Assembly: GCA_964371595.1 (NCBI GenBank)
Contig: CAYJNJ010000001.1
Span: 46,408-110,407, forward strand
Origin: an uncultured Bacteroidales bacterium
Lineage (GTDB): Bacteria > Bacteroidota > Bacteroidia > Bacteroidales > JAGOPY01
Direction: 5' to 3'
Length of the DNA: 64,000 nucleotides
The notes beneath the pieces were generated by a model, which worked only from the letters and a program-made list of their open reading frames with translations, ran no database searches and was not told where the DNA came from. This document shows positions 18,393 through 56,876 of the stretch, one piece after another. The position numbers and the translations under genes were made by a program. The number at the start of each line of letters is the position of its first letter. Position 1 is the first letter of the stretch.

Positions 18393-18400
18393 TTGAATTA

Positions 18401-18483: not shown

Positions 18484-18544
18484 TCATAATAAATCCCAGG
18501 CCAACAAATTCCATTAGATTTGCAGGGAAATTCTAAAAATCTTC

Positions 18545-20959
18545 TTGGAAAAAAATATTAAAATAAGTTGTTTTCATTGCGGTGAAGACTGCGGCAGCCA
18601 ACCTGTCCTATTTGATGAAAAACCCTTTTGCTGCCATGGTTGTAAGACGGTTTATGAGATCCTGAAAGAAAGCGGTTCCTGCGAGTATTACAATATCGAA
18701 GATCATCCCGGCATTAAAATCCGGGAAGCGGAGATCGGGCAGAAATATGCTTACCTTGACAATGAAGAGATCCGGAATGGGCTGTTGGAATTTTCAGATG
18801 GAGGGATAAGTAAAATCAGGCTTTTCATTCCATCGATCCATTGCAGTTCCTGCATCTGGCTGCTCGAAAACCTGGGCAGGCTGCATAAAGGGATCATCCA
18901 TTCAATGGTTAACTTCGTTAAAAAAGAGGTGACCATCACTTTTAAGGAAGATGTGCTTTCCCTTCGCAAACTTGTCGAATTGCTGGTTTCGCTCAATTAT
19001 ATACCGCGGATAACGCTGGATGACATGGACAGGCAGCAAACCAGGAAGCACCAGCGAAAAATCTATTACCAGCTTGGTGTGGCCGGGTTTTGTTTCGGGA
19101 ACATCATGCTATTCAGCTTCCCCGACTATCTTGCAGGAAGCAAGCCCATCGACCAGGGGTTTATACACAATTTCTCCTACTTCAGCCTGATACTGGCCAT
19201 TCCGGTCGTGTTCTACTCGGCGCAGGATTATTTTATTTCGGCCTTTAAAGGCTTAAGGCAGAAGGTGGTTAATATCGAAGTTCCCATCGCATTAGGTATA
19301 GCAGTCCTTTTCCTGAGAAGCGCTTATGATATTCTTTTCAGGATCGATTCGGGTTACCTGGATTCGATGGCAGGACTGGTCTTCTTCATGCTCATCGGTA
19401 AATGGTACCAGGGCAAAACCTACCAGGCCCTTTCGTTTGACAGGGACTATAAATCTTATTTTCCCGTTGCTGTCACTGTTATTAAGGAAGATGGCGCCGA
19501 ATCCACCATTCCCTTAAAAAACCTAAAGCCCGGCACCCGGATCATTGTCCGTAACCAGGAACTGATCCCGGCCGATTCCATCCTGGTCAGGGGTGAGGCC
19601 CATATCGATTACAGTTTTGTGAGCGGGGAATCGACCCCTGTCCATAAAAAGGAGAAAGACCGGATCTTTGCCGGTGGAAGGCAGATCGGAAGCGCAATTG
19701 AGCTGATTGTCGAGAAAGAAGTGATTCAGAGCTACCTGACGGAGCTTTGGAACCAGGACCTTCACGGCAAAGCCGGGTACAGGGGGCTGAATACGCTGAT
19801 CAACAAAGTCAGCCACTATTTTACCATCGTCATCATCAGCATCAGCCTGATTACGGCTGTCTTCTGGCTAACCAGGGACCCGTCGGTCGCAATGAATGCT
19901 TTTACCAGCATCCTGATCGTTGCCTGCCCCTGCGCACTGGCACTGACCATTCCCTTTGCATTTGGCAATACCATGCGCATTTTCGGTAAATCGGGCTTTT
20001 ACCTGAAAAAGACGGAAGTGCTGGAGGAGCTTTCGAAAATTAATACGATCGTCTTTGATAAAACCGGCACCATCACCCAAAATGATGAATACAACATTGA
20101 GCTTGACGACATTGAGCTTAATGAAGCTAACATCAGGTTAATAAGGTCGCTGGTACGGCATTCCTCTCACCCGCTGAGCCAGGCCTTGTATCATGGCCTG
20201 CCATCGGGGGCACTTTCAGAAGTCAGCAATTTTACGGAGATCCCTGCACTTGGAATAGAGGGAATTACAGAAGGAAAAACGGTCAGGGTCGGTTCAGAGG
20301 AATTTATTACCGGGAAAGTCAGCGGGTCCAAATCTTACACGACAAAAGTGTACATTTCCATAGACGGCCAGATCCCCGGCTGGATCCGGATCAGCAACCA
20401 GTACCGTCCCGGGATGGAAGGAGCAATCCGCAGCCTGCGGGAGGATTATGAGCTCCATCTTCTGTCGGGTGATAATGATGCCGAAAAAGGAAAGCTGCTG
20501 CCATTGTTCGGGGACGAAAACTCACTGCATTTCCGTCAATCCCCGAAGGATAAGCTCCTGTACATTGAAAATCTGAAAGCGGCGGGAAAGAAGATCCTCA
20601 TGGTGGGCGACGGGCTGAATGACGCCGGGGCGCTGAAGGAAAGCCATGTAGGGATCACGATCGCCGATAATGTCTATCACTTCTCTCCTGCCTGCGACGG
20701 CATCCTCGATTCCGACCGTTTCAGCCAACTGCCTAAATTTATCCGCTTCAGCCATACGGCAAAGCGCATCGTCATTGCAGGCTTTATCATTTCATTTCTC
20801 TATAATATCGTCGGAATCTCCTTTGCCGCATCCGGCATGCTGACCCCGATGTTGTCTGCCATCCTCATGCCGCTAAGTTCGGTCACGGCTGTGGCTTTTG
20901 CGACATTTACGACATTGATTTTTGCGAAACGCCGGCTCACCGCACCAACACACAATTGA
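18545..20959 (+). CDS. ccoI: copper-translocating P1B-type ATPase CcoI/FixI (cbb3 oxidase maturation)
   Basis: The 804-aa product has a Cys-rich N-terminus (CFHCGEDC, CCHGC), an HMA-like CSSC, the CPC motif, DKTGT and GDGLNDAGAL. It sits directly upstream of ccoS-ccoNO. It has a TTG start. Confidence 0.9.
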   Translation: MEKNIKISCFHCGEDCGSQPVLFDEKPFCCHGCKTVYEILKESGSCEYYNIEDHPGIKIREAEIGQKYAYLDNEEIRNGLLEFSDGGISKIRLFIPSIHCSSCIWLLENLGRLHKGIIHSMVNFVKKEVTITFKEDVLSLRKLVELLVSLNYIPRITLDDMDRQQTRKHQRKIYYQLGVAGFCFGNIMLFSFPDYLAGSKPIDQGFIHNFSYFSLILAIPVVFYSAQDYFISAFKGLRQKVVNIEVPIALGIAVLFLRSAYDILFRIDSGYLDSMAGLVFFMLIGKWYQGKTYQALSFDRDYKSYFPVAVTVIKEDGAESTIPLKNLKPGTRIIVRNQELIPADSILVRGEAHIDYSFVSGESTPVHKKEKDRIFAGGRQIGSAIELIVEKEVIQSYLTELWNQDLHGKAGYRGLNTLINKVSHYFTIVIISISLITAVFWLTRDPSVAMNAFTSILIVACPCALALTIPFAFGNTMRIFGKSGFYLKKTEVLEELSKINTIVFDKTGTITQNDEYNIELDDIELNEANIRLIRSLVRHSSHPLSQALYHGLPSGALSEVSNFTEIPALGIEGITEGKTVRVGSEEFITGKVSGSKSYTTKVYISIDGQIPGWIRISNQYRPGMEGAIRSLREDYELHLLSGDNDAEKGKLLPLFGDENSLHFRQSPKDKLLYIENLKAAGKKILMVGDGLNDAGALKESHVGITIADNVYHFSPACDGILDSDRFSQLPKFIRFSHTAKRIVIAGFIISFLYNIVGISFAASGMLTPMLSAILMPLSSVTAVAFATFTTLIFAKRRLTAPTHN

Positions 20960-21113
20960 TGGTTGGTCGGCGGTTCCCTCCTGCCGCACCGCCGTGATAT
21001 AATTTAGAACCCTTCTAAATATCAATAAAACTGGATATTTCAGTATGATCGTCTTTTACCTGATATATTTTAAAATTAAATTTGTTTTAGAATTATGATA
21101 TCACAATCTCTCA

Positions 21114-44296: not shown

Positions 44297-44437
44297 TGTT
44301 TAATTATCAATGCTTAATTATTAGTACTTTAATTCATAATTAGATAATTATTCTTACAGTCTTACCGTCCTACAGTCTTACCGTCCTACAGTCCTGCAGT
44401 CCTAGCGACGCTTTGCGACTTCTTTGCGAAACTTTGC
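44286..44437. repeat. composite word arrays: TTAAT-rich words, then the 8-mers CTTACAGT / CTTACCGT / CCTACAGT (7 units), then three CTTTGCG-containing words
   Basis: Read directly. The composite starts at the rsmE stop codon. Confidence 0.8.
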
Positions 44438-44525: not shown

Positions 44526-44765
44526 ATGAAAACACTCTCCTTAAAACTTGACGACAATATATTCCAGGAAACCGAGCAGGTAACCGGATACATGAAAAAG
44601 TCGCGGAACAGGTATATAAATGACGCACTTGATCATTACAACAAGATACAGCGGCGAAAGATGCTGTCGGCTCAACTGGCCAGGGAGTCGGAGCTGGTAG
44701 CAGGAGAATCCATGGAAATGTTGAACGATTTTGAGCAGATAGAAGATGAAGGTCAAACAATTTGA
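44526..44765 (+). CDS. ribbon-helix-helix antitoxin
   Basis: 79 aa. The N-terminal beta-strand MKTLSLKLDDN and the pattern YINDAL fit an RHH antitoxin. It overlaps the toxin gene. Confidence 0.65.
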   Translation: MKTLSLKLDDNIFQETEQVTGYMKKSRNRYINDALDHYNKIQRRKMLSAQLARESELVAGESMEMLNDFEQIEDEGQTI

Positions 44766-45090
44766 AATATGGATAGCCGATCTGAACCCACGGATTGGAA
44801 CGGAGCCTGGCAAGGTGCGGCCGGTTGTTATTGTTCAGACTGACTTACTGAATAAACATCATCCATCAACAATTATTTGTCCGGTAACTACGAAAGTTCA
44901 GCCGGGCAGCGAGATATTGCGGGTACATTTAGCCATAGGCAGTTGCGGGCTGGACGAAGCCTGCGATATTATGATCGACCAGGTCAGGGCGATTGACAAT
45001 GCGAGGCTTCTCAGAAAGCTCGGAAAGGTCCCCGCTACTTCAATTGAAAAGGTCAAACAAAATCTCAAGGTCATTCTTGACCTGGATTGA
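44746..45090 (+). CDS. mazF: type II toxin PemK/MazF family endoribonuclease
   Basis: 114 aa. The sequence FEIWIADLNPRIGTEPGKVRPVVIVQTD is a classical MazF/PemK signature. Confidence 0.85.
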   Translation: MKVKQFEIWIADLNPRIGTEPGKVRPVVIVQTDLLNKHHPSTIICPVTTKVQPGSEILRVHLAIGSCGLDEACDIMIDQVRAIDNARLLRKLGKVPATSIEKVKQNLKVILDLD

Positions 45091-45149
45091 TCCGTTTCCT
45101 TTCACCATTTAGGCACATCAGGCACATAGATATCACATTAGGACGATCA

Positions 45150-45335
45150 GTCCCGTCAGGGACGACAGTATGGTAGGGAAAGGAATCGAAATTACCATTA
45201 AGTCCCATCAGGGACGACAGTATGGTAGGAAAAGAATCGAAATTACCATTAAGTCCCATCAGGGACGACAGTACGGTAGGATAGAAATCGAAGTTACCAT
45301 TAAGTCCCGTCAGGGACGACAGTAAGGTAGGAAAG
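45150..45335. repeat. 3.6 tandem copies of a 51-52 bp unit, each containing two small hairpins
   Basis: Units begin at 45150, 45202, 45253 and 45304. The unit is GTCCC(A/G)TCAGGGACGACAGTATGGTAGGAAAAGAATCGAAATTACCATTAA. The hairpins are GTCCC/GGGAC and ATGGTA/TACCAT. The array is flanked by GACGATCAG direct repeats (45142 and 45352). Confidence 0.9.
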
Positions 45336-45371
45336 GAAAATCGGGCGATATGACGATCAGGCGAGGTATCA

Positions 45372-45560
45372 TTGAACCATGATGTCAGGCTGGATCTTGT
45401 TCCTGTTGAATTTATCAAAACCATGACCCTGAAGAATTTCAGCCCGAACACCATCAGGACTTACAAGTCGACGAGTTCAAAGACCATGGAAAATTATACA
45501 CACATTACACAAAGGGGATCGTGGAAAATAAAACGTCCGCCGGATAATTTTGATATTTAA
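45372..45560 (+). pseudogene. tyrosine recombinase (integrase) remnant with an internal deletion
   Basis: The 62-aa ORF joins an N-terminal SAM-like segment (FIKTMTLKNFSPNTIRTYKS) directly to the extreme C-terminal catalytic-Tyr segment (SSKTMENYTHITQ...IKRPPDNF). The roughly 250 aa that normally separate them are missing. Confidence 0.65.
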
Positions 45561-45694
45561 TTTTATTATATTTGAGGTAGGTAACCAAATCGATTTTCCA
45601 GTGAATGCTCTTCACTTATCATTTTCCATTCCAGTATACAATACCATCCAAAATGGAGGCGTTTATGCCATTGGTAAGTCGATTTATCAAAAAT

Positions 45695-45736
45695 AAATGC
45701 ACTGCATTTGCACAATCGTTGGCACCAATTGTGCGC
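45695..45736 (+). mobile_element. attI-like junction: two small palindromes around the first GTT crossover core
   Basis: The first palindrome is AAATGCA-C-TGCATTT (45695-45709). The second, GCACAAT..ATTGTGC (45710-16 and 45728-34), encloses GTTGGCACC (45718-26). That core is complementary to the 5' end of the first attC-like site. Confidence 0.45.
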
Positions 45737-45785
45737 AACCAGACAGGTAGTTTAAACATCTTAGAGTAAAAAAAACAATAAAAAT

Positions 45786-46436
45786 ATGAAAACAATAAAA
45801 TTCTTAGGATTACCATTATTATTCATAATGTATTTGATGATTACACTTCCATTTCAGAGTTGCAAGCCTGATGATGAAGATTGTAATTCCAGCACGGCTG
45901 ATAAACCTAACATTTATATATATCCAAATGAAAAAATCCAATTGACAGTAAAACTTGATTTTCCAATGGGCGGCAAAATTGTAAAATCAATCCCTGAATA
46001 TGGAACAGGTTGGAATGTTTTGGTTGATACAACTGGATTGATGGATAACACTTATTCCTATTTATTTTATGAAAGCATTCAACCTGATATTTGGCAACGA
46101 AACTATGGCTGGAGTATTGAAACTGATGATTTAGATTTATTTTTTAGAAATAATTTGACAGAGTATGGATTTAAAGGTGGAGAAATTGAAGATTTTGTTG
46201 ACTATTGGATTCCTCGACTTAAATATTCCCCATATTATTTAATTTATCCACAAACAAAAAATTTAATTGACAATGTTATAAAATTCGATTTTTCACAGCA
46301 ACCTGATAATTTGTTGAGACTTTTTTATCTCATTAAAGGAAGCAATCAATTACAAGAGAGTTTAATAGAACCGAAAATAGATAATTTTAAAAGAGAAGGA
46401 TATGTTGTGACAGAATGGGGAGTGATTCTGAAATAA
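45786..46436 (+). CDS. hypothetical lipoprotein (cassette 1)
   Basis: 216 aa. It has a signal peptide with Cys (FQSC), is AT-rich, and has no recognisable domain. Confidence 0.7.
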   Translation: MKTIKFLGLPLLFIMYLMITLPFQSCKPDDEDCNSSTADKPNIYIYPNEKIQLTVKLDFPMGGKIVKSIPEYGTGWNVLVDTTGLMDNTYSYLFYESIQPDIWQRNYGWSIETDDLDLFFRNNLTEYGFKGGEIEDFVDYWIPRLKYSPYYLIYPQTKNLIDNVIKFDFSQQPDNLLRLFYLIKGSNQLQESLIEPKIDNFKREGYVVTEWGVILK

Positions 46437-46605
46437 CAACTGGTGCCAACGAACGCGCAGCGCCCAGCCCGGACCTCAAATTGTCCGTCCAGGCCGGCGC
46501 TTATTAAGTAAAAAATGAAAAGTGAAAAATGAAAAATGAAGAAGCGCCTTCCGCCAAATGGCGGACAAATAACCCGGCCCAATGCGCTGCGCTCGCACGT
46601 TACAG
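46437..46605 (+). mobile_element. attC-like recombination site 1 (long imperfect palindrome)
   Basis: The 5' end is CAACTGGTGCCAAC and the 3' end is GTTACAG. The internal stem GCGCAGCGC (46455-63) pairs with GCGCTGCGC (46584-92). The inner arms ATTGTCCGTC..GGCGCTT and AAGCGCC..GGCGGACAAAT also pair. Confidence 0.6.
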
Positions 46606-46631
46606 GGCATTTTAAAAGTAAAATAATTCCA

Positions 46632-47639
46632 ATGAAGAGTTTTTATATTCTAATAAGCTTAATTTTTATATTCATTATGGGAAGGACACAAGATTGTCCA
46701 TATGAAATACATTTTACAACTCAATCGCAAATAGATAGTTTTCAAATCCGATATCCAAATTGTACTGAGATTGATGGACATATTCATATAGGCGGATCTG
46801 ATGATATAACCAATTTGAATGGACTCAGTCAAATTACTTCAATTGGTGGATGGCTTAGAATTGAATTTAATGTTGCTCTTACCAATTTATCGGGACTTGA
46901 AGGAATTACCACAGCCAATTGGTTACATATCAACAACAATGGATCTCTACTTGACTTGACAGGATTGAATAATCTAACTTCGTTAGAAGGCTGGGTAGTA
47001 TTGTATGCAAACCAAAATTTAACAAGCCTGAATGGTTTAAATAGTTTAACTTCTATAGGAGGAAACTTATATATTGGAGAAGATATTGATGGTGGCGGAA
47101 ATCCAGCACTGGCAAATATTGAAGCACTGGGAAATTTGACTTCGATTAATGGTGGAATTCGAATAATAAATAATGTAGCTCTTAACAGCCTAGATGGAAT
47201 AGAAAATATTGATGCAAGTTCAATTTATGGATTAATAATTTATAATAACTCATCATTATCAACCTGTGAAGTACAAAGTGTTTGTTCATATTTGGCCAGT
47301 CCAAATGGAGCCATAGAAATTCATGACAACAACTCTGGATGCCTCAGCCAAAACGAAGTTGAAACAGCTTGTGGAGTTGGATTTGATGAGAAAGGAACAT
47401 TTGGAGGACCAATCAATATTTATCCTAATCCAACCTCTGAACAATTCACAATTGAATCCAAAGTACCAATACATCAGGGTGTTATTGGTATTTTCAGCGT
47501 AGATGGTCATGAGATTAAACATTACCAAATCACTGAATCAAAAATGAATATTGATATAAGATATTTGCCCTCTGGAGTTTATTTTGTGAGAGTTACGTGT
47601 GAAAATGTAGTAAGAATGTTCAAAATAGTAAAGTATTAA
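46632..47639 (+). CDS. leucine-rich / receptor-L-domain-like repeat protein with a T9SS C-terminal sorting domain (cassette 2)
   Basis: It has a signal peptide and repeated LTSLxGLxxLTSIGGxLxI motifs. The C-terminus (INIYPNPTSEQFTIES...GVYFVRV) is a T9SS tail. The ATG at 46632 is preferred because the upstream part of the ORF lies in the attC-like repeat. Confidence 0.75.
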   Translation: MKSFYILISLIFIFIMGRTQDCPYEIHFTTQSQIDSFQIRYPNCTEIDGHIHIGGSDDITNLNGLSQITSIGGWLRIEFNVALTNLSGLEGITTANWLHINNNGSLLDLTGLNNLTSLEGWVVLYANQNLTSLNGLNSLTSIGGNLYIGEDIDGGGNPALANIEALGNLTSINGGIRIINNVALNSLDGIENIDASSIYGLIIYNNSSLSTCEVQSVCSYLASPNGAIEIHDNNSGCLSQNEVETACGVGFDEKGTFGGPINIYPNPTSEQFTIESKVPIHQGVIGIFSVDGHEIKHYQITESKMNIDIRYLPSGVYFVRVTCENVVRMFKIVKY

Positions 47640-47642
47640 GGA

Positions 47643-47712
47643 TTTAAAACGCCCTGTAACAAAACGCAATTGCCAGCCGAAAAAAGCCCGGCAGTTGCGC
47701 CAATCGTTAGGT
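47643..47712 (+). mobile_element. attC-like recombination site 2 (70 bp)
   Basis: The sequence runs TTTAAAACGCCCTGTAAC...CGCAATTGCC (47665-74), which pairs with GGCAGTTGCG (47690-99), then ...GTTAGGT (47706-12). GTTAGGT fits the GTTRRRY consensus. Confidence 0.65.
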
Positions 47713-47939
47713 TTAATTGGTAATGAACACTGGATAATAAACCGTAAAAATATGAAAGCAAATATTTTCATTCTGAATTTCTGGATTCTATTATGCACTT
47801 GTATAGCTCTACCATCTTGTAAGGAAGACAATGACGGATTATATATGCTATGATATGGAAACTAATCTTGTCAAAATTACAGCGATACAAAAACCTGACT
47901 AATATATAATTAATTTCAATCGAGAAAAAATCTCAGTCC

Positions 47940-48395
47940 ATGAATAGATTTAAAATTTTGTCAATCCTGTTAATTAGTATTTTAATAGGTTCATGTGAGA
48001 ATGACTCAAATAATGAAAATAACGTAAATGACTTAAAAGATGTCAAATGGATGTTAATAGGGTTTCAATCACAGGACACTCACAAAGTGGAATTCAAACC
48101 AGAAAACCTGAAAGAAATGGATATTGAGTTTAATGATGGTCACTGGATACATGCAATAAGCTCGTGCAATTGGTTTGATGGTTATTACTCAGTTGCAAAC
48201 CCGGATAAAATACAGATTGATAGTTTATATTCAACGATGATGAATTGTGAAAATGATACAATTCGAAACTGGGAAGAAAGATACTATAATGAATTAAAAA
48301 ATGCTACGAATTATCGCATAGCTGGAGATAACTTATTCATTACAACGAAATTAAATACTGAAATCATCTTTCTCGCAGAATATATAACCAATTAA
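47940..48395 (+). CDS. META domain-containing lipoprotein (HslJ-like) (cassette 3)
   Basis: It has the lipobox LIGSC. The pattern DVKWMLIGF...CNWFDGYY...D.LYSTMMNC is typical of META domains. Confidence 0.75.
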   Translation: MNRFKILSILLISILIGSCENDSNNENNVNDLKDVKWMLIGFQSQDTHKVEFKPENLKEMDIEFNDGHWIHAISSCNWFDGYYSVANPDKIQIDSLYSTMMNCENDTIRNWEERYYNELKNATNYRIAGDNLFITTKLNTEIIFLAEYITN

Positions 48396-48440
48396 AGCTA
48401 ACGAACGAACAGCGCCCAGGCGTCAGGCACTATTGCGGAT
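48388..48440 (+). mobile_element. attC-like site 3, apparently truncated (5' arm only)
   Basis: CCAATTAAAGCTAAC is followed by GAACGAACAGCGCCCAGG, which matches the 5' arm of site 1. I found no convincing 3' arm or GTT core. Confidence 0.4.
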
Positions 48441-48447
48441 ATTAAAA

Positions 48448-49017
48448 ATGGAATTTTCTACAACACTGTTATCCGGACAAGAAAAAATGACTGATTCTGA
48501 ATTAAAAATTATTCAGAAAGAAAAATGGCGTCAAATATTTCCAGCTTCAATGATTTTTCTGTTCCTCTTCCTAATTTTATTCATTTATTCAAGCTTGAAG
48601 AATGAATATGGAACTATGTTCCTTGTTTTATTAAGTTTCTCATTAGTAATAAGTATCATTTCATTTTTAATGCTCGTTAGAAAGTATAATGAGGATCTTA
48701 AAATTCAAAAAGTCGACTTAATTGAGAAAATAGTTGAAGACAAGGTATATAAAGTCGATTATGAACCAGGCAGTGCTTCAATTCCAGTCAATCTACTATC
48801 GTTGTTCTTTATTAAATCTTTGCTTAAAAGAAAAATGAAAGAGGTCCATCTATACTATCTAGTGATCGAAGGTGAAAAACTATATATCGATCAAAACCAA
48901 TTTGAAAAAGCTGAAGTAAGCAAACCCATAATCATAAGACAAACATCAATTGCAAAAGTATTTACAGGACTTCAAATCCAAATAAATAAGTTATCTGATG
49001 AGAAAATTATTTTTTAA
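48448..49017 (+). CDS. hypothetical membrane protein (cassette 4, first ORF)
   Basis: It has an ATG start, two predicted TM helices and very low GC. No domain is recognised. Confidence 0.6.
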   Translation: MEFSTTLLSGQEKMTDSELKIIQKEKWRQIFPASMIFLFLFLILFIYSSLKNEYGTMFLVLLSFSLVISIISFLMLVRKYNEDLKIQKVDLIEKIVEDKVYKVDYEPGSASIPVNLLSLFFIKSLLKRKMKEVHLYYLVIEGEKLYIDQNQFEKAEVSKPIIIRQTSIAKVFTGLQIQINKLSDEKIIF

Positions 49018-49519
49018 TACTCTTGTTTTGCTTTCATTGATATTAATAATTGGCGCTTGTAATAAAAATCCAAGTGAAGCAGATCCTAATAATATAGATT
49101 TTGAAGGAATAACCTCAAGAGACATCTTTGGTCAATCTACAGGTTTCTACGATTCAACAGACTGGCGACTAGACGATATTTGGCAAGGCAAAGAAATTGA
49201 GTTATTTGCTGACTATGAGCTATATAATTATAATTCTCCAATTAATTTAACTAATCAAATTGTCGGTTACCCTAACCCAATTGTTGATTCCATGTTTCTA
49301 CTGCACATCGAAAAAGACTCATCAACAAGAATAGATTTTCGGATTGTAAACCAAAATTTTGAGAAATTGATTTCCATTGATTCTTTGTATGTTCAACAAA
49401 TTGCAATGACTTTCAAAGATATTTTGACTGAAAATGATAACATGCTTAGAATATATTATCGATTTGTTCAATCAGATAATAGTGGATTTATTGGGCATGG
49501 AGACATTTTAATTAAATAA
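48998..49519 (+). CDS. hypothetical lipoprotein (cassette 4, second ORF)
   Basis: 173 aa with the lipobox IIGAC. It overlaps the previous ORF by 20 nt. Confidence 0.65.
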   Translation: MRKLFFNTLVLLSLILIIGACNKNPSEADPNNIDFEGITSRDIFGQSTGFYDSTDWRLDDIWQGKEIELFADYELYNYNSPINLTNQIVGYPNPIVDSMFLLHIEKDSSTRIDFRIVNQNFEKLISIDSLYVQQIAMTFKDILTENDNMLRIYYRFVQSDNSGFIGHGDILIK

Positions 49520-49696
49520 CGCCCTACCACGGACATGCAAAGGCCAGGCCGGATCTCAAATTGTCCGTCAAGGCAGGCGCTTATTAAGTGAGAAATGAAA
49601 AACGAAAAATGAAAAACGAAGAAGCGCCCTCCGCCAACCGGCGGACAAATAACCCGGGCCAGGGCGCTGCTCAGAGCGCAGCACACCAAGTGGCTA
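49511..49696 (+). mobile_element. attC-like site 4: long form homologous to site 1, with a degenerate 3' core
   Basis: The central 110 nt or so are close to identical to 46465-46590, including the AAATGAAAA loop words. At the 3' end, GCAGCACACCAAGTGG stands where GTTACACACCTGGTGG would be expected. Confidence 0.5.
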
Positions 49697-49750
49697 TAAG
49701 TCGAGCTTATTTCGTTCAATTTTTCGTATTTTTGTATAAAATGTCATCAT

Positions 49751-49993
49751 ATGGACCTGCAAACTAGAAAATTGAATTTCATTCAGGAGTTCCTTCGTTT
49801 GAACAACGAAAAGCTTATTAATAAGCTGGAGAATCTCTTGAAATCGGAAAAAGCTAAATCCTACGAACAACACCTATCTCCTTTAAGCGAAGAGGAATTA
49901 AATAGAATAATTGATGAAGCTGAAAAGGATTCTAAAGAAGGAAGATTAACATCGGCAGTTGAGCTTAAAAAAGAAATTGATTCATGGAGCTAA
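49751..49993 (+). CDS. putative antitoxin / addiction-module component (cassette 5)
   Basis: It is an 80-aa helical protein. Its stop overlaps the ATG of a RelE/ParE-like reading frame. Confidence 0.55.
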   Translation: MDLQTRKLNFIQEFLRLNNEKLINKLENLLKSEKAKSYEQHLSPLSEEELNRIIDEAEKDSKEGRLTSAVELKKEIDSWS

Positions 49994-50307
49994 GAGTCTT
50001 TTGGACTGATACGGCCCTTAATCAGCTCAAAGATATTTTTCATTATTATAAAGTCAAGACCAACCAGAAGGTCGCAAATGATATTGCCAGTAAGTTAGTT
50101 AACCGAACCATTCAATTAGAGTAAAATCCCAGAAGTGGGCAAAAAGAGCCTCTCCTAGCCAACCGAAAGTTTGAATATCGATACCTTGTTGAAGGAAATT
50201 ACAAAATCATTTATTGGATAGAAGACAATTATGTCAAGATAGCGACCGTGTTTGATTCCAGGCAAAATCCCAAGAAATTAGCCAAGTTGAATCCACCAGG
50301 TGTGTAA
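49984..50307 (+). pseudogene. RelE/ParE family toxin gene interrupted by an in-frame TAA
   Basis: The reading frame gives MELRVFWTDTALNQLKDIFHYY...IQLE, then TAA at 50122-50124, then NPRSGQKEPLLANRKFEYRYLVEGNYKIIYWIEDNYVKIATVFDSRQNP. Read through the stop, this is a full-length ParE/RelE-like protein of about 107 aa. Confidence 0.7.
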
Positions 50308-50339
50308 CAAACGCGCACCGCCCAGGTCGAACGTTATAG
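50293..50339 (+). mobile_element. attC-like site 5 (short form)
   Basis: The sequence is CCACCAGGTGTGTAAC, then AAACGCGCACCGCCCAGG (the family 5' arm), then TCGAAC-GTTATAG. Confidence 0.45.
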
Positions 50340-50412
50340 GCTATGTCAAACGACTGCTAAGTATGACGGAAAATAACAACCCGAAAGGTTAATTTAAACA
50401 AATATTAATATT

Positions 50413-50871
50413 ATGAAAAAGTTACAATTCACTATAAGCATCAATGCTCCTGTGACCAAGATCTACGATTTTATGCTTGGTATCACCAGTAAATCAACTT
50501 ATGAGCAATGGACTTCTTTGTTTAACCCGACATCGACCTATGAAGGAAGTTGGAACAAGGGAAATAAAATTCTATTTATTGGAGTAGATGAGAAAGGAGA
50601 AAAGGGAGGGATGGTTTCCAGGATAGCAGAAAACATCCCCAACCGATTTGTTTCGATTCAACATTATGGTCTTTATAAAGCTGACAAGGAAATCACAGAA
50701 GGACCAGAAGTGGAAAAATGGGCAAACGGATTTGAAAACTATACCTTCGAAGAAAACAATGGAACTACAACCGTTACTGTTGACTTAGACACCATTGAAG
50801 ATTTTTTAGATTATATGAACCAGACCTACCCAAAAGCACTCGATAAGTTGAAAGAACTTTGTGAAAAATAA
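50413..50871 (+). CDS. SRPBCC / AHSA1-like domain protein
   Basis: 152 aa. Its size and pattern are typical of the Activator-of-Hsp90-ATPase-homologue-like SRPBCC family. Confidence 0.65.
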   Translation: MKKLQFTISINAPVTKIYDFMLGITSKSTYEQWTSLFNPTSTYEGSWNKGNKILFIGVDEKGEKGGMVSRIAENIPNRFVSIQHYGLYKADKEITEGPEVEKWANGFENYTFEENNGTTTVTVDLDTIEDFLDYMNQTYPKALDKLKELCEK

Positions 50872-51230
50872 CAATTTATCCTTAGTGGTTATTGAGGTTG
50901 TACCGGTGGAATAGAATAGCGTGATGTTGGGATAATAGTCAAGCGTATAGCTTGTCGCGGGCGGATCCATCGGGTTAAAAGGAACATCATCCTGTTCCGC
51001 GGTACGCGAACAGTTTGAATTCGTATCCATCGTAGGCCTTATTAAATATGCCATCAATAAAGGTTTGATAGGATAGACACTACCCACACAATCCACAATC
51101 AGAACAATTATTAGATTCATCTGTTAATTTCGGGATGAATTTTAATATATAACAAAATGAGAAAATAAATTTGCGCAATCAAATAGTTGCGCTTATATTT
51201 GCAACCAGATAATTGCACGATCACCATAGC

Positions 51231-51563
51231 ATGAAAACAAGACGAGATGCATTTCAGGCAATAGCCGACCCAACACGAAGGGCAATCTTGTTATTGATTG
51301 CTGCACAGTCAATGACACCGAATGCAATTGCAGAAGAATTTCACACCAGCAGACAAGCGGTTTCAAAGCATATTCAAATACTTACCGAATGTGAATTGGT
51401 GAAGCAAGAGCAAAAAGGAAGAGAAATATATTACCACATCAATGCAAACAAAATAAATGAGATCGATAAATGGGTTGAGCAATTCAAAAATATTTTGGAA
51501 ACTCAGTTCACTCAACTCGACAATGTATTACTAAAACTAAAAAACATAAAAAATGAAAAATAA
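51231..51563 (+). CDS. ArsR/SmtB family transcriptional regulator
   Basis: [17 protein letters not shown] forms the start of a winged helix-turn-helix domain. It overlaps the following SRPBCC gene. The ATG at 51231 is preferred to the TTG at 51213. Confidence 0.85.
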
Positions 51564-52044
51564 TTTGCTATTTGATTTTACCGTTGACAAAGCATCAAAA
51601 ACGGTATTTATAACCAGAGAATTTGATGCCGGCCTATCACTGGTATGGGATGCTTTTACCAAACCAGAAATTCTTGACCAATGGGTGGCACCTAAACCAT
51701 GGGTGTCAAAGACCAAATTTATGGACTTCAGGGTTGGCGGACGAAGATTTTATGCGATGGTAAGCCCTGAAGGACAAGAGCGTTGGGCAATTCAGAAATA
51801 CACTTCCATTAGCCCAAAAACCAATTTCAAAATGTTTAATGCTTTTGCGGACAAAGATGAAAACCCTGAATTACCTGGTTCTGACTGGGATTACACATTT
51901 AGCGAAGAGAACGGGAAGACAACAGTGCATATTACTATTTATAATGAATCACTTGCCCGTATGGAGAAGATGATTGAAATGGGCTTTAAGGAAGGATTCA
52001 CTATGAGCATGACCAACCTGGAAAATCTATTGGCAACTTTATGA
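51553..52044 (+). CDS. SRPBCC (AHSA1-like) domain protein
   Basis: 163 aa. Pairing with ArsR is a common arrangement. Confidence 0.7.
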
Positions 52045-52093
52045 CATACTTAGCCCAAACGTACTGGAAGCATAGCTAATTGAAACATTCTGA

Positions 52094-52603
52094 ATGAAAA
52101 AGACTATAAAAAATCAAATTTTCTTTATTGGACTATTAACCGGATTATTAGTAAATTTAGGTTGCTCCAATAGATCAAGTGACACTACATTACAAGTGCA
52201 AAGCAATCAACAAGATATGAAAGCCACAAAAGAAACTTTAGTACAAATCCTTGATGCATTCAATCGGCATGACCTTGATGCGATCATGGAATTCTTCTCC
52301 GATGATTGCTCATTTGATTTTCCGAGGGGACCTGAATCCTGGGGACAACGCTACATTGGCAAAGCACAGGTACGAGAGGCACTTGCAGGCCGTTTCAAAG
52401 GAATTCCAGATGTTCATTATGGCGAAGACCGTCATTGGATTTCATCAGATGGAAATATGGGAGTATCAGAATGGACGCTTACCGGAACCACAACTTCAGG
52501 CCTCAGTTTAAAATTGAGAGGTTGTGACCTCTGGGAGTTTCGAAATGGCAAAATTATCCGAAAGGATTCATACTGGAAAATAGTTGAGCCAACATCGAAA
52601 TAA
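52094..52603 (+). CDS. SnoaL-like / NTF2 family lipoprotein
   Basis: It has the lipobox NLGC. The pattern AFNRHDLDAIMEFFSDDC...W.FRNGKI is typical of SnoaL-like polyketide-cyclase folds. Confidence 0.65.
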   Translation: MKKTIKNQIFFIGLLTGLLVNLGCSNRSSDTTLQVQSNQQDMKATKETLVQILDAFNRHDLDAIMEFFSDDCSFDFPRGPESWGQRYIGKAQVREALAGRFKGIPDVHYGEDRHWISSDGNMGVSEWTLTGTTTSGLSLKLRGCDLWEFRNGKIIRKDSYWKIVEPTSK

Positions 52604-52646
52604 GTATAGAATAAATTCACATCGGCGTATTGAAACAAAAACTACA

Positions 52647-53219
52647 ATGATGATACTCCACATAAAAAATATGGTCTGTAACCGCTGTAAGATGGTTGTG
52701 AAATCGGAACTGGAAAAACTCGGATACCACCCGGTTTATATTTCTTTAGGTGAGGTTACTCTGGAAAAGGAACTCACAAATCATGAAAAAGCGACAATAG
52801 ATACGACGCTAAAACAGGTTGGGTTTTCAGTTATAGACGATAGGAAAAGCAGATTGATAGAGAAGATTAAAACATTGATTGTTGAGCTTGTGCATCAAAA
52901 TAATAATGAACTCAAGACTAATCTTTCTGACTATCTGAGCAGTCAGTTAAACAACGACTACAAATACATCACTACCCTGTTTACAGAGGTGGAAGGAACC
53001 ACTATTGAAAAATATTTTATTGCACAGAAAATTGAGCGGGTGAAAGAACTGCTTGTTTACGATGAACTTTCACTTGGCGAAATTGCTTATCAACTAAATT
53101 ATTCCAGTGTAGCGTATCTAAGCGCTCAGTTTAAAAGGGTTACAGGATTAACTCCAAGTCATTTCAAAGAAATCCGCACTGAAAAAAGGAAATCTTTAGA
53201 TGAGCTGAAATTCTCATAA
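52647..53219 (+). CDS. AraC family transcriptional regulator with an N-terminal heavy-metal-associated (HMA-like) domain
   Basis: The N-terminus is MMILHIKNMVCNRCKMVV, containing the MxCxxC metal motif. The C-terminus is an AraC-type HTH (LNYSSVAYLSAQFKRVTGLTPS). It lies directly upstream of copA. Confidence 0.8.
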   Translation: MMILHIKNMVCNRCKMVVKSELEKLGYHPVYISLGEVTLEKELTNHEKATIDTTLKQVGFSVIDDRKSRLIEKIKTLIVELVHQNNNELKTNLSDYLSSQLNNDYKYITTLFTEVEGTTIEKYFIAQKIERVKELLVYDELSLGEIAYQLNYSSVAYLSAQFKRVTGLTPSHFKEIRTEKRKSLDELKFS

Positions 53220-53293
53220 CTCTTTCAGAAAATAGTGTAACGATTTAGCGGCCGGTTGTTGCCATTTTTGCAGTGTAATTAAAAACAAAAAAT

Positions 53294-55546
53294 ATGACAA
53301 CAAAAATCCAAACACCGCTATACATTCCGCTGGAAGGAGTTACTTCAGTAAAGAAAACATTTCCTGTATTGCAAATGACCTGTGCTTCATGTGCAGTAAG
53401 TGTAGAGAGCATCATAAAATCACAAAATGGTGTTATTAATGCTGCTGTGAATTTTGCTACGGCAACAGTACTGGTAGAGTATCTCCCAAATATGATTCAA
53501 CCTGACGATTTGCGCAAAGCGGTTCAATCTATTGGTTATGACTTGCTCATCGAAAACGATTCTAAAGGATCAGAAACACTTGAAGCCATTCATGAGACAA
53601 AATTCAAGGAACTGAAATGGAAAACCATTTTGGCTTCTGTTCTTGCTATTCCTGTAGTTATTATTGGAATGTTTTTTATGGACATTCCCTATGCGAATGA
53701 GATCATGTGGTTGTTATCAACGCCTGTTATTCTATGGTTCGGAAGGGATTTCTTTATAAATGCCTGGAAACAGGCAACCCATCGCTCTGCCAATATGGAT
53801 ACACTTGTTGCATTAAGCACCGGTGTTGCTTATCTGTTTAGTGTATTCAATACTTTGTTTCCACACTTCTGGCAAGAGAGAGATTTGCACGGACATGTGT
53901 ATTTTGAGGCAGCCGCAGTGATAGTTGCATTCATCTTATTAGGAAAACTGCTGGAAGAAAAAGCAAAAGGCAATACTGCTTCTGCTATCAAAAAATTGAT
54001 GGGCCTGCAGCCAAAAACAGTAACTGTAATTCACCATGGTAATCAAGAAATGGAAATGCCGATTGAAAAGGTAAATGCAGGTGACATCATACTTGTAAAA
54101 CCGGGCGAAAAAATAGCGGTGGATGGAATTGTGACTAATGGCAGTTCTTATGTGGACGAGAGTATGCTAAGCGGAGAACCTGTTCCCCTCTTGAAAAAAG
54201 AAGACGAAAAAGTATTTGCAGGGACCATCAATCAAAAAGGCAGTTTTCAGTTTCGTGCCGTGAGAGTGGGCAGCGAAACCATGCTTGCGCAAATTATTCG
54301 CATGGTTCAGGATGCCCAGGGTAGTAAAGCCCCTGTTCAAAAATTGGTCGACAAGGTTGCCGGAATATTTGTGCCTGTGGTTATCTTAATTGCCATCCTT
54401 TCCCTGGCAGTATGGTGGATCTTTGGTGGTGAAAATGGCTTCACGCAAGGATTAATGGCATTAGTAACTGTGTTAGTGATTGCCTGCCCCTGTGCCCTTG
54501 GCTTGGCAACACCCACCGCTATAATGGTAGGTGTTGGTAAGGCAGCCGAAAATGGAATTCTCATCAAAGATGCAGAGAGTTTGGAATTGGCTAAAAATAT
54601 AAATGCCATAGTCCTGGACAAAACAGGAACCATCACAGAAGGCAAGCCTGTTGTAACTGATATTATGTGGCTGAAGAATGATGATTTGGCTAAGCAAATT
54701 TTATTCAGCATTGAAAAGCAATCTGAGCATCCTTTAGCCGATGCTGTGGTCAGTCATTTTGAAAAGCTTGCTCCGGTTAGCATTTCAGATTTTCAAAGTA
54801 TTACCGGAAAAGGAGCAAAAGCGGTTGTTTCAGGACAAACCTATTTTGTGGGAAACAAAAAACTGTTGCTTGAAAACAACATTGAGATTTCAGAACAATT
54901 ATTGGTGAAAGCCAAATCATGGAGCGATGCCTCTGTAACTGTCATTTGGTTTGCAGACCAAATCAATGCATTGGCAGTATTAGCCATATCAGACAAAATC
55001 AAATCAACATCTGTTGAAGCTGTCCAACATCTGCATCAACTGGGAATAGAAGTATATATGCTTACCGGTGATAATGAAGCAACTGCTGAATTTATTGCAG
55101 GACAAACGGGTATCAAGCATTTTAAAGCAGAATTGTTGCCGCAGCAAAAAGCAGAATTTATAAAAAACCTGCAGGCAAATGGAAAAACCGTTGCAATGGT
55201 AGGCGATGGGATAAACGACAGCACAGCATTAGCGCAGGCTGATGTGAGCATTGCGATGGGCAAGGGAAGCGATATTGCTATGGACGTTGCAAAAATGACC
55301 ATCATCTCATCCGACCTGAATAGAATCCCTCTTGCAATTAAGCTTTCTAAGCAAACAGTCGCCACTATTCATCAGAATTTATTTTGGGCATTCATTTACA
55401 ATATCATCGGCATTCCAATTGCCGCAGGCGTATTATTTCCATTCACCGGCTTCCTGCTTAACCCCATGATTGCTGGCGCAGCTATGGCGCTTAGCAGTGT
55501 TAGCGTAGTGGGTAACAGTCTACGGCTGAAATGGAAGAAAGTCTAA
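53294..55546 (+). CDS. copA: copper-translocating P1B-type ATPase
   Basis: 750 aa. It has an HMA domain (MTCASCAVSVE), the CPCALGLATP motif, DKTGTIT and GDGINDSTALA. Confidence 0.95.
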   Translation: MTTKIQTPLYIPLEGVTSVKKTFPVLQMTCASCAVSVESIIKSQNGVINAAVNFATATVLVEYLPNMIQPDDLRKAVQSIGYDLLIENDSKGSETLEAIHETKFKELKWKTILASVLAIPVVIIGMFFMDIPYANEIMWLLSTPVILWFGRDFFINAWKQATHRSANMDTLVALSTGVAYLFSVFNTLFPHFWQERDLHGHVYFEAAAVIVAFILLGKLLEEKAKGNTASAIKKLMGLQPKTVTVIHHGNQEMEMPIEKVNAGDIILVKPGEKIAVDGIVTNGSSYVDESMLSGEPVPLLKKEDEKVFAGTINQKGSFQFRAVRVGSETMLAQIIRMVQDAQGSKAPVQKLVDKVAGIFVPVVILIAILSLAVWWIFGGENGFTQGLMALVTVLVIACPCALGLATPTAIMVGVGKAAENGILIKDAESLELAKNINAIVLDKTGTITEGKPVVTDIMWLKNDDLAKQILFSIEKQSEHPLADAVVSHFEKLAPVSISDFQSITGKGAKAVVSGQTYFVGNKKLLLENNIEISEQLLVKAKSWSDASVTVIWFADQINALAVLAISDKIKSTSVEAVQHLHQLGIEVYMLTGDNEATAEFIAGQTGIKHFKAELLPQQKAEFIKNLQANGKTVAMVGDGINDSTALAQADVSIAMGKGSDIAMDVAKMTIISSDLNRIPLAIKLSKQTVATIHQNLFWAFIYNIIGIPIAAGVLFPFTGFLLNPMIAGAAMALSSVSVVGNSLRLKWKKV

Positions 55547-55719
55547 CAGACACCTTATGCGGGTATAGGTAAACCTGAAGCACTTATATATACTACTGAT
55601 AGTTGTTAAATAACTACTAAAAGTAGCGTAATTACAACTATAAGTGTTGGTATTTTTATTATTCCGGAATTGAATCCGAATAACTTTGCAGCATCGCAAA
55701 ACTAAAATAAATAACACTT

Positions 55720-56643
55720 ATGGAAACTACAAAAAAGATTGGCAATAAAATTGCCGATGCCCGAAAGAAAACAAATATTTCTCAGGCGCAGCTTGCCCAG
55801 CGCTTATTCATCAGTTCACAGGCAGTCGGAAAATGGGAACGCGGAGAATCAATGCCAGATATCATTACGTTAAACCGTCTGGCGGAAATTCTGGGTGTTG
55901 ACCTTAACTACTTTTCAGAAAACTTCCAATCCGTGACCAATGGAATTGCATCAGTAGAATCGCCGGATAAGGAATCGTCTGAATTGCCATCCGGAAAGCA
56001 AAGCGTGGCAGGGAAAAAGTTAAACTGGGATATGTCTCGCGGGAATTGGGTAGGCGCTGACTTTTCAGGATTGAAAAATCTTCATGAAAAATTCAGTTCC
56101 TCCAACATGCAGCGTTGTAAGTTTATCGGTTCGGATTTATCGGGACTTCTTTTAAAAAACAATAATGTAGATGCTTGTGAATTCTCTGGTTCCGACATCA
56201 GCAACAGCCATATTCAAGGTTCCAACTTAGGAAATATTATATTTAAGGACTGTTCCCTGAAAGAAACTGAATTTTCAGACAGCAACATCAACAGCTGCGA
56301 TTTCACCGGAGCCAATTTTACCGGGGCGACACTTAAATCAAGCAACTTCCTGAAAAACAAAATGGTTAATGCAGTGTGGAATCGCACTTCCTTTATTGGA
56401 ATGGCGATTGATGATATAATTTTCGATGGTACTATGGAGGACTGTTATTTTGAAAACTGTTCCTTTTACAGAGTGACATTCCGGAATGCAACGCTTATTA
56501 ACACCTTCTTTAAAAACAAGAGTTTGAAACGGATCCGGTTTATTGACTGCGAGGCCGACCGGATGACCTATGAATTCCTCAAAGCCGGGAAAGCTGATTT
56601 AACCGGCATCACGTTGTTAACGCCAAAAGGAGGAGATGAATAA
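55720..56643 (+). CDS. XRE-family HTH domain fused to a pentapeptide-repeat domain
   Basis: The N-terminus is an XRE-type HTH (ISQAQLAQRLFISSQAVGKWERGESMPD). The C-terminal half consists of A(D/N)LXX-type pentapeptide repeats. Confidence 0.8.
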   Translation: METTKKIGNKIADARKKTNISQAQLAQRLFISSQAVGKWERGESMPDIITLNRLAEILGVDLNYFSENFQSVTNGIASVESPDKESSELPSGKQSVAGKKLNWDMSRGNWVGADFSGLKNLHEKFSSSNMQRCKFIGSDLSGLLLKNNNVDACEFSGSDISNSHIQGSNLGNIIFKDCSLKETEFSDSNINSCDFTGANFTGATLKSSNFLKNKMVNAVWNRTSFIGMAIDDIIFDGTMEDCYFENCSFYRVTFRNATLINTFFKNKSLKRIRFIDCEADRMTYEFLKAGKADLTGITLLTPKGGDE

Positions 56644-56759
56644 TGCCGCAAAATGTAATTGTTTACTATGCATATACCAGGATAGTATTGAAAATGAGAA
56701 TCTCCTCCTTAAGTTTTATGAGATTTAAATTATAATTGTAAATTTACATTGACAGTCGA

Positions 56760-56830
56760 TCCGCCAGCTGGCGGACCTAATCGGGTAATCCTTCTGGCCA
56801 GGGCGCTATACTTGAGTGCTTGAGTTCATT
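56760..56830 (+). repeat. half-copy of the long attC-like element (3' arm only)
   Basis: TCCGCCAGCTGGCGGAC...GGCCAGGGCGCT aligns with 49630-49668 and 46549-46590. It ends at GTTCATT (56824-30). Confidence 0.45.
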
Positions 56831-56876
56831 GGAATAAAAGGTGACGCAAACAATTAAAGAAAATAAATCTTTAATA

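Follow-up and report, generated by a model that had tools for sequence, protein, structure and literature searches.

Probable remains of an integron-like gene-cassette platform on the chromosome of a sediment Bacteroidales-type bacterium, with a living form in relatives

Organization of the locus

The 64,000-nt stretch of DNA analysed here (the window; coordinates without a locus label refer to it, and L-, P- and X-numbers denote compared loci or contigs, proteins and read sets, respectively) contains a low-GC island at 45.1–56.8 kb in which every gene lies on the + strand, the GC content falling from 0.45–0.55 in the flanks to 0.31–0.42 within ~45–57 kb. The island comprises the remnant of a tyrosine recombinase gene followed by a series of gene cassettes, and is read here, with a probability of roughly 0.85, as the fossilised remains of an integron-like gene-cassette platform on the chromosome of a Bacteroidales-type sediment bacterium, a platform whose living form is found in relatives. 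Its features are as follows (ORF, open reading frame; T9SS, type IX secretion system; LRR, leucine-rich repeat).

45125–45338, + strand: four tandem copies of a 51–52-nt unit, the expanded, out-of-frame linker-coding part of the recombinase gene
45372–45560, + strand: 62-codon recombinase pseudogene in which the beginning of the SAM-like domain is fused in frame to the C-terminal YTH...KIK.P.DN tail
45583–45720, + strand: attI-like region, core TTTGCACAATC|GTT at 45707–45720, crossover G at 45718
45718–46601, + strand: cassette 1, lipoprotein-like ORF 45786–46436 and long intact attC A1 (AAC 46448–50, GTT 46599–601)
46599–47708, + strand: cassette 2, T9SS-sorted Recep_L/LRR-like protein 46632–47639 and short intact attC A2 (AAC 47658–60, GTT 47706–08)
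47706–48424, + strand: cassette 3, truncated lipoprotein start 47753–47853, META-domain lipoprotein 47940–48395 (Pfam META) and collapsed attC A3
48422–49680, + strand: cassette 4, membrane protein 48445–49017, lipoprotein 48998–49519 and long attC A4
49678–50335, + strand: cassette 5, antitoxin 49751–49993, ParE-family toxin pseudogene 49984–50308 and collapsed attC A5 (AAC 50306–08, GTT 50333–35)
50333–50900, + strand: sixth unit, SRPBCC/AHSA1-like protein 50413–50871 (weak Pfam AHSA1 match)
50900–56738, + strand: distal block of co-directional genes for an ArsR-type regulator, AHSA1, SnoaL, an AraC/HMA regulator, a heavy-metal P-type ATPase and an XRE-pentapeptide protein
56739–56832, + strand: degenerate 3' half of an attC (…TTCTGGCCAGGGCGCTATACTTGAGTGCT…), weak covariance-model match (8.2 bits, E 0.58)

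Five attC-like sites are recognisable in the window, of which A1 and A2 are intact, A4 is degenerate and A3 and A5 are collapsed, and a terminal half-site lies at ~56.74 kb. An earlier reading of the same letters (the first-pass annotation) had described an integron-like cassette array here, and all of the sequences that it quoted lie where it had placed them. Its site list holds for A1 and A2 but requires correction for A3 and A5, which are collapsed, and for A4, whose triplets are mutated; likewise, it ended the array at 50339, whereas the island reaches ~56.8 kb and ends in the 3' half-site 56739–56832. The cargo that it named (lipoproteins, a T9SS-tailed repeat protein, a META protein and a toxin-antitoxin pair) is borne out by lipoprotein-type signal peptides, a protein of cassette 2 with Pfam Por_Secre_tail and Recep_L_domain matches, the META protein and a ParE toxin with its antitoxin. 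The ORF of cassette 1 (45786–46436) has no Pfam match.

The recombinase pseudogene is the only copy in the window, where no other recombinase copy was found. Its residues 2–34 align by BLASTP with residues 84–116 of the homologue P0055 and its residues 35–62 with residues 339–366, so that the co-directional and decayed gene of the first-pass annotation is more than decayed: residues 117–338, including the catalytic R, K, HxxR and H, are lost in frame, and the N-terminal domain is also missing. Matches by tblastn are found in L228, L167 and L236. The translation of the tandem repeats at 45125–45338, SPIRDDSMVGKE, resembles the linkers of intact homologues (L228 ISPIRDVIMVEKEG; P0023 PVRDDSMVAVRDDS), and the repeats have blastn matches in L228, L033 and L231. 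Their copy number differs between the same-species contigs L001 and L002, giving a length difference of ~246 bp. In a comparison of P0016, P0023 and P0001 (protein alignment A2, columns 85–230), the linker that connects the N-terminal domain to the core likewise consists of hypervariable tandem repeats, e.g. (GREDxKTV)n, with a spread of >100 aa in length among homologues.

Immediately downstream, the attI-like region is 78% identical to L247:11558-11696, which lies 3' of the intact recombinase of L247. The attI core TTTGCACAWWC|GTT (TTTGCACAWWCGTT) is also present 3' of the recombinase in L228, L231, L245, L246, L250 and L251.

Pairing of cassette ends and strand bias

The first-pass annotation had proposed that the 5' arm of each site is complementary to the start of its own cassette. 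A repeat search independently recovered three of its four start/end complementarities, namely 45709–32 against 46436–59 (24 nt, 83%), 46599–616 against 47643–60 (18 nt, 94%) and 47704–24 against 48384–404 (21 nt, 90%). Anchoring each comparison on the AAC of the site and on the GTT that opens its own cassette, and scoring positions 4–17 (14 positions, the triplet excluded), gives 11/14 complementary positions for cassette 1, 13/14 for cassette 2, 12/14 for cassette 3 and 10/14 for cassette 5. Among 11,489 GTT...AAC pairs elsewhere in the window with a spacing of 400–1500 nt, the maximum is 10/14 and none reaches 11. The complementarity is real and far beyond chance, the controls failing to match the real values. 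For cassette 4, the start at the first-guess boundary yielded 3/14 matches and is too decayed to score. Additionally, the window contains three copies of the 5' arm AACRAACGNNCANCGCCCAG, where 0.01 would be expected, and the internal paired boxes GCGCAGCGC/GCGCTGCGC and CGCAATTGCC/GGCAGTTGCG, described earlier for these palindromes, are present in the window sites.

The same relationship extends to other arrays, where 20 cassettes with both ends known match their own starts at a mean of 10.9/14, as against 5.5/14 for the start of the next cassette and 4.8 ± 2.1 for random pairings. When the arms of 19 cassettes, including three window cassettes, are aligned, 88.9% of the cells are paired versus 56.8% in shuffles (0/500 shuffles reach 88.9%); shifting the partner by 1–3 columns reduces pairing to 28–36%, and compensatory changes affecting both sides occur at 13 of the 17 pairs. 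The resulting R stem spans 17 bp, consistent with the earlier remark that complementarity extends beyond the textbook 7 nt. One position is the exception: position 11 carries C in the 5' arm of all 20 cassettes and the opposing A at the cassette start in 18/20, so that the top strand has a C×A mismatch where the bottom strand has a G·T wobble; A1 shows the same C×A at position 11 with its own start.

This asymmetry is accompanied by a consistent strand bias. In the reconstructed circular-form sites of other arrays the bottom strand is the more stable in 16/16 cases, the mean difference being 8.2 kcal/mol (Wilcoxon p = 3e-5), with one L251 site reaching -61.5 kcal/mol on the bottom strand (z = -9.25). 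Both intact window sites follow, the bottom strand being ahead by 4.3 kcal/mol in A1 (-47.5 versus -43.2 kcal/mol for the reconstructed hairpin) and in A2 (-27.3 versus -23.0 kcal/mol), which brings the count to 18/18. In classical attC sites, too, the bottom strand is known to be enriched in G:T pairs (PMC5027507). Because the genes lie antisense to the favoured strand, mRNA structure offers no explanation of the bias.

These data bear directly on the idea that the palindromes are self-spreading intergenic repeats, like repetitive extragenic palindromic (REP) sequences or miniature inverted-repeat transposable elements (MITEs), or terminators, and that the gene units are not mobile. Such repeats could account for a strong hairpin and for a highly conserved 150-nt unit that is abundant in many metagenomes, but their outer arms would not be expected to be cassette-specific and to pair with the start of their own unit, nor would their strand bias favour the antisense strand rather than the mRNA. 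Moreover, all copies share one orientation and lie 3' of the recombinase, and gene units travel together with their site between genomes, bounded at GTT (see below), which leaves this explanation extremely improbable.

Architecture and distribution of the site family

The sites follow a common plan. On the 5' side, a cassette-specific arm (often TTTAAAACGSNCCNNY) is followed by AAC, 4 nt, GCGCAKCGC, CCAG, SCCGGAC and a hairpin of ~100 nt; on the 3' side follow CCCGGSCC-AGG, GCGCTGCGC, 5–6 nt and GTT. Sequence reading, folds and the covariance model agree on the attC architecture R''(AAC)-spacer-L''-variable hairpin-L'-spacer-R'(GTT), with spacers of 4 nt and 5–6 nt. The palindromes are 50–160 nt long, and the long sites measure 150–160 nt from AAC to GTT, exceeding the quoted attC range of 57–141 bp (PMC5027507). 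Extrahelical bases, which the first-pass annotation had named as a mark of attC, are not seen on the L'' arm in the predicted folds; there the L stem pairs perfectly or with a single 1×1 mismatch, and the asymmetry between the arms lies on the L' side.

A covariance model (R1) built from 40 sites outside the window recognises the window sites, in keeping with the first-pass suggestion that an attC model should do so; it returns three significant sites (A1, A4 and A2) and three remnants (A5, A3 and the half-site). A1 is matched at 46436–46613 with 88.8 bits (E 2e-23) and A2 at 47646–47720 with E 5.6e-6. A4 is matched at 49516–49692 with 51.9 bits (E 3.9e-13) and is 85% identical to A1 across 142 nt, although its R'' reads CAC (49528–30) and its R' GCA (49678–80) instead of GTT. 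A3 (48388–48436) has the form R''-GAAC-GAACAGCGC-CCAG running straight into GCGTCAGG; its 5' arm pattern matches, its hairpin apex and L' are gone, and the covariance-model match is weak (E 1.2). The same collapsed form occurs in L061. A5 (50294–50347) has lost its variable terminal structure (VTS, the hairpin apex) and L', with a covariance-model E of 0.12.

Collapsed, hairpin-less junctions recur in unrelated arrays (window 48388–48436 and 50294–50347; L061:5139-5186; the joint 46453->47710 in run X5), either as AAC-spacer-L''-CCAG joined to (C)GTT or as AAC-GAAA-GTTAGG. They may arise by deletion of the palindrome, which would permanently fuse neighbouring cassettes.

Beyond the window, true relatives of the sites are present in the Bacteroidales metagenome-assembled genomes (MAGs) L050, L061, L068 and L108, in a Bdellovibrio MAG (L054), in a Woesearchaeota-labelled MAG (L033) and in >100 metagenome contigs. 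A scan of the genome collection with AACRAACGNNCANCGCCCAG gave mostly chance matches in GC-rich genomes and was real only for L033, L050, L054, L061, L068 and L108. A generic detector (AAC, spacer, 8-nt box...complementary box, spacer, GTT) found as many matches in shuffled as in real sequence and was therefore used only together with a GC filter and the family signature.

Several observations accompany the site family. The contig labelled Candidatus Woesearchaeota (L033:1-8000; CAYJQB010000003.1) holds nine sites of the family; its segment L033:91-277 shares homology with the linker repeats found in the Bacteroidales recombinase, and its cassette proteins have Bacteroidota-style signal peptides, so that either mis-binning or cross-domain transfer may underlie the contig, the origin of which bears on claims about archaeal integrons. 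The apex of the long hairpin (site alignment A1, columns ~85–125; e.g. L251:13075-13110) is conserved as aTTG-N21-TAACTTTG, resembling the Bacteroidota promoter consensus (-33 TTTG, -7 TAnnTTTG) directed at the next cassette; if it were a real promoter, each site could drive the downstream cassette. The apex of A1 and A4 in the window differs and is A-rich. In addition, a two-gene module consisting of a tyrosine recombinase of 278–311 aa followed by an IS91-family Y2 transposase (Zn_Tnp_IS91 and Y2_Tnp) adjoins attC sites at L250:12199-14225, 16929-18733 and 20021-21092 (three times in one array), L174:9507-11584 and L223:722-2799. This module looks like an insertion element targeting the attC family, recalling the ISCR elements and group IIC-attC introns of classical integrons. 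The L174/L223 recombinase (38% identity) had been considered as the platform integrase in the classical divergent orientation, and is instead the partner of the IS91-type Y2 transposase inserted beside attC.

The platform recombinase and its relation to IntI and Xer

Intact homologues of the recombinase are proteins of 360–420 aa belonging to a large family annotated as XerD, in which the catalytic R, K, HxxR, H and Y are invariant and the C-terminal tail G..KIKSPLDNL is IntI-like. Aligned with the sequence of VchIntIA from the PDB, residues 150–343 correspond to 13–205 and residues 345–416 to 248–319, leaving VchIntIA residues 206–247, the IntI-specific domain, without a counterpart. Consistent with this gap, all six proteins examined score below the cut-off of the integron integrase model TIGR02249 (219–225 bits versus 265), each match falling into two stretches with a break at model position 178/179. 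The XerA-type model NF040815, itself named 'tyrosine recombinase/integron integrase', is passed by five of them with 232–236 bits against a cut-off of 220, and the sixth, P0111, reaches 219.8. An AlphaFold model (mean predicted local distance difference test score 80.6) has XerA (5hxy) and IntI (2a3v) as its nearest folds and predicts an extra N-terminal β-β-α-β-β-α-β domain of ~70 aa, which has no Pfam match and was not identified by a whole-protein fold search. By alignment, the platform recombinase is a relative of both IntI and XerA without the IntI-specific additional domain (the I2 helix). Bulged L''-arm bases are contacted by that domain in VchIntIA (PMC5027507), and their absence would fit a protein that lacks it.

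A recombinase of this kind raises the question of whether the sites are double-stranded Xer/dif-like targets, comparable to the pdif modules of Acinetobacter plasmids and served by an Xer-type enzyme without single-strand folding. The protein itself speaks for such an arrangement, as it passes NF040815, has XerA as its best PDB match and lacks the I2 helix held to enable single-strand recombination (PMC4792948, PMC7790495). The sites do not: with arms ~150 nt apart a 28-bp double-stranded core is impossible, the arms vary freely among cassettes yet stay complementary, which indicates that structure rather than sequence is recognised, the G·T positions systematically favour one strand, and exchange occurs at one end (GTT) only, as in integrons. 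Recombination at double-stranded sites is accordingly regarded as very unlikely.

Platforms in relatives and movement of cassettes

Where the contigs of intact homologues are long enough to tell, the recombinase gene is followed by a co-directional array, as at the following loci.

L228: recombinase serving as the identity reference, followed by a co-directional array
L245: recombinase 84% identical to that of L228, followed by a co-directional array
L250: recombinase 74% identical to that of L228, followed by a co-directional array
L247: recombinase 63% identical to that of L228, followed by a co-directional array
L251: recombinase 63% identical to that of L228, followed by a co-directional array

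In these five loci a toxin-antitoxin pair is often the first feature after the recombinase, followed by the attI core and then the array. Across six loci, all strong covariance-model matches lie 3' of the recombinase and in the same orientation. The cargo of related arrays includes a Pterin_bind (dihydropteroate synthase (DHPS)-like, sul-like) protein and a Beta-lactamase-family protein (L245:14151-14957; L252:16406-17749).

L251 is syntenic with the window through cytochrome bd genes, a 1223-aa T9SS protein and rsmE. It carries an intact recombinase directly after rsmE, followed by different cassettes (Gp49/HTH, PIN, TIR and Phd/YoeB), so that the comparison with relatives suggested by the first-pass annotation reveals a wholly different array at the corresponding place. 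Moreover, L245, L246 and L228, which come from three samples, are 100% identical for 900 nt through ...TTTGCACATACGTT and only ~27% identical, the random level, from the next base onward. Since the identity ends at the attI GTT, different cassettes entered there recently, beside an intact recombinase.

Cassettes are also shared between arrays. The toxin-antitoxin cassette of the window (49663–50326) is 92% identical to L068:253-917, in the array of another Bacteroidales, the homology stopping at the attC/GTT points and the neighbours differing on both sides. The cassette starts with GTTACACACC in L068 and with GCAGCACACC in the window, and the L068 boundary is the homologue of the A4 R'. The L068 version retains an intact ParE toxin and a full-length attC, from which it follows that A5 arose by internal deletion of the hairpin apex and L' and that the A4 R' is mutated. 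The window ParE gene (Pfam ParE_toxin) has an in-frame TAA at 50122, and T50122A is present in other metagenomes. Similarly, the 3' part of cassette 2 together with A2 is 83% identical to L247:15825-16216, and groundwater metagenome contigs hold homologues of several window cassettes. One of these (run X5) joins the homologue of cassette 1 to that of cassette 3 without cassette 2 (joint 46453->47710). The same-species contigs L001 and L002 and the sediment runs have the gene order of the window, without junctions. A joint 46540->49642 in own-population reads was considered as a deletion; it carries 30 unmatched letters between its two sides and is read as an attC copy from a different genome.

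Both the GTT boundaries of the shared cassette and the turnover of the first cassette exactly at the attI GTT place the crossover at G|TT, as had been proposed from the window, and recombination at this point means that each cassette keeps TT and its own arm at its 5' end.

Distal block and flanking sequence

After the sixth unit no attC is recognisable and the covariance model gives no match downstream; the same-species contig L002 breaks at ~50880, within this unit. The distal block (50900–56738), whose gene labels derive from Pfam matches of called genes in L001 and L004, has a GC content of 0.37–0.42 as against 0.45–0.55 in the flanks, and the covariance model gives no matches between its genes. 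These are probably fused former cassettes or an insertion. Parts of the block are very abundant (up to 150x) in another freshwater metagenome (X9). The half-site at 56739–56832, which by eye resembles the 3' half of L174- and L054-type sites and coincides with the end of the low-GC island, appears to mark the distal end of the former array.

Upstream, between rsmE and the recombinase remnant, an antitoxin and PemK/MazF toxin pair (44526–45090) occupies the place where the N-terminal domain would be expected; the syntenic L251 has no toxin-antitoxin pair at this position, and a second RHH/PemK pair lies ~9 kb upstream (L001:2128-2699). Directly after rsmE, 8-nt simple repeats (TCTTACAG/TCTTACCG...) at 44352–44395 reach a depth of 26–182x in unrelated metagenomes, and a different simple repeat stands at the equivalent place in L251 (L251:9620-9760).

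Discussion

The observed site family, with its arm covariation and strand bias, the sharing of cassettes, the turnover at attI and the domain architecture of the recombinase can be brought together in a single model. In its living form, the platform would consist of a tyrosine recombinase gene upstream of the array and in the same direction, then attI (TTTGCACAWWC|GTT), then cassettes each ending in an attC-like palindrome. As in integrons, attC×attC exchange would release cassettes in circular form for insertion at attI, the recombining form would be the folded bottom strand, and the exchanges would be catalysed by the platform recombinase. The relatives appear to expose an active, widespread Bacteroidales integron variant that uses a recombinase without the IntI-specific domain. 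The window copy, as read from its sequence, is inactive, with the catalytic core lost, two attCs collapsed, one carrying mutated triplets, a stop codon in ParE and distal genes without attC. The first-pass interpretation of a cassette array is supported, including its caveat that the system might be a divergent Bacteroidota one rather than a textbook integron, with which the missing IntI-specific domain, the extra N-terminal domain, the 17-bp R stem and the lack of L''-arm bulges agree.

The nearest known design is that of the inverted-integrase sedentary chromosomal integrons (e.g. Treponema denticola) and the archaeal integrons with attI directly 3' of intI (PMC4889954, PMC9668308); a co-directional integrase and array is thus not new in itself, inverted-integrase integrons being known (PMC4889954). 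Common to the inverted-integrase integrons and the platform are the order recombinase-attI-co-directional array, the G|TT crossover, the R''/L''/VTS/L'/R' attC, a cargo of toxin-antitoxin pairs and secreted proteins, and a chromosomal location. The platform differs in its recombinase, which lacks the additional domain, scores below the TIGR02249 cut-off and carries both an extra N-terminal domain and a linker of hypervariable repeats, and in often placing a toxin-antitoxin pair between the recombinase gene and attI. Like the Vibrio cholerae repeats (VCRs) of the superintegron, the attC sites are >120 nt long, conserved within a lineage, unlike the diverse short sites of mobile integrons, and biased toward the bottom strand; unlike VCRs, they belong to a different sequence family, have a 17-bp R stem with a fixed position-11 mismatch and lack L''-arm extrahelical bases. 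With XerA, XerC and XerD the recombinase shares catalytic and SAM-like domains nearest to XerA (5hxy) and the absence of the I2 helix, but, in contrast to Xer/pdif systems, there is no dif-like 28-bp site with a 6-bp centre, the gene is tied to attI and an array, and the protein has an IntI-like tail and an extra N-terminal domain. In terms of the features by which integrons are recognised, the platform has an adjacent tyrosine recombinase (a remnant in the window; intact in L228, L245, L247, L250 and L251), attI, the attC architecture, the G|TT arm logic and the bottom-strand bias, whereas the IntI-specific additional domain near patch III and, in predicted folds, the L''-arm extrahelical bases are absent.

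The alternative closest to the platform reading is an ordinary integron remnant, i.e. a group of clustered attC sites that have no integron-integrase (CALIN), in which a canonical IntI, bearing the additional domain and located elsewhere or since lost, moved the cassettes, the XerD-like neighbour being unrelated. The window has the outward form of a CALIN, for which at least two attC sites suffice, as it contains several attC-type sites and, for a recombinase, just one gutted pseudogene; it would probably be assigned to this class by IntegronFinder. The site design also resembles that of classical attC (AAC/GTT triplets, L boxes, unpaired spacers and the 3' spacer TCGAGC-GTT; PMC5027507), and CALINs can be served in trans (PMC9668308). 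Unlike a CALIN, however, a class that is silent on the serving enzyme, the window retains a remnant of the platform recombinase together with attI, and a recombinase or its remnant lies directly 5' of a conserved attI not only in the window but also in L228, L231, L245, L246, L250, L251 and L247. Three contigs show turnover of cassettes at attI beside identical intact recombinase copies, and the sites have no L''-arm bulges, fitting a protein without the domain that contacts them. In addition, no canonical intI was found among the ~250 fetched loci. Taken with these data, an ordinary integron remnant is unlikely.

Several points nevertheless weigh against the platform reading itself. A canonical IntI elsewhere in these genomes could act in trans, and recombinase activity, strand use and circular intermediates are inferred. 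The family members L248 and L252 (51–52% identity) have no array or a doubtful one, and Rfam 15 returns nothing relevant on these sites, whether at the gathering threshold or with E values of up to 10. The segment at 50.9–56.7 kb has no internal attC, its putative membership of the array being drawn from GC content and one degenerate half-site. Finally, sediment reads of the window's own population (X1–X4) contain no excision or circle junctions and no cassette polymorphism at the boundaries, a result that fits a dead copy.

In practice, integrons are defined by an integrase with the additional domain, and the experiments of Messier and Roy 2001, as cited in PMC4889954, treat this domain as the innovation that made the recombination of folded single strands possible. 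In the view of the Mazel and Escudero groups, single-strand recombination came into being with the I2 helix (PMC4792948, PMC7790495), and for Bacteroidetes, IntegronFinder 2 lists a complete integron only in Salinibacter ruber (PMC9024848). No description of the present recombinase-array association was found in the full-text literature searched, the coverage of which is incomplete, so that a prior description is possible. A more far-reaching proposition, for which the odds seem even, holds that a widespread Bacteroidales lineage captures cassettes at folded single-stranded attC with a recombinase that never had, or has lost, I2, recognition proceeding through the 17-bp R stem with its fixed G·T at position 11 and perhaps through the N-terminal domain, in a position between Xer and IntI.

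The window's own copy is a dead relic that matters only as a lead to these relatives. If a large Bacteroidales family uses cassette logic without the domain, IntegronFinder would file its platforms as integrase-less CALINs, under-counting integrons in a major phylum. If the recombinase does act in this way, the platform would represent a natural intermediate or an alternative solution between Xer and IntI, and the origin of integron recombination from Xer would become testable with a natural pair of protein and site. The traffic of cassettes among Bacteroidales of sediment, groundwater and digesters, carrying toxin-antitoxin pairs and TIR, PIN, beta-lactamase-family and DHPS-like proteins, would thereby gain a mechanism.

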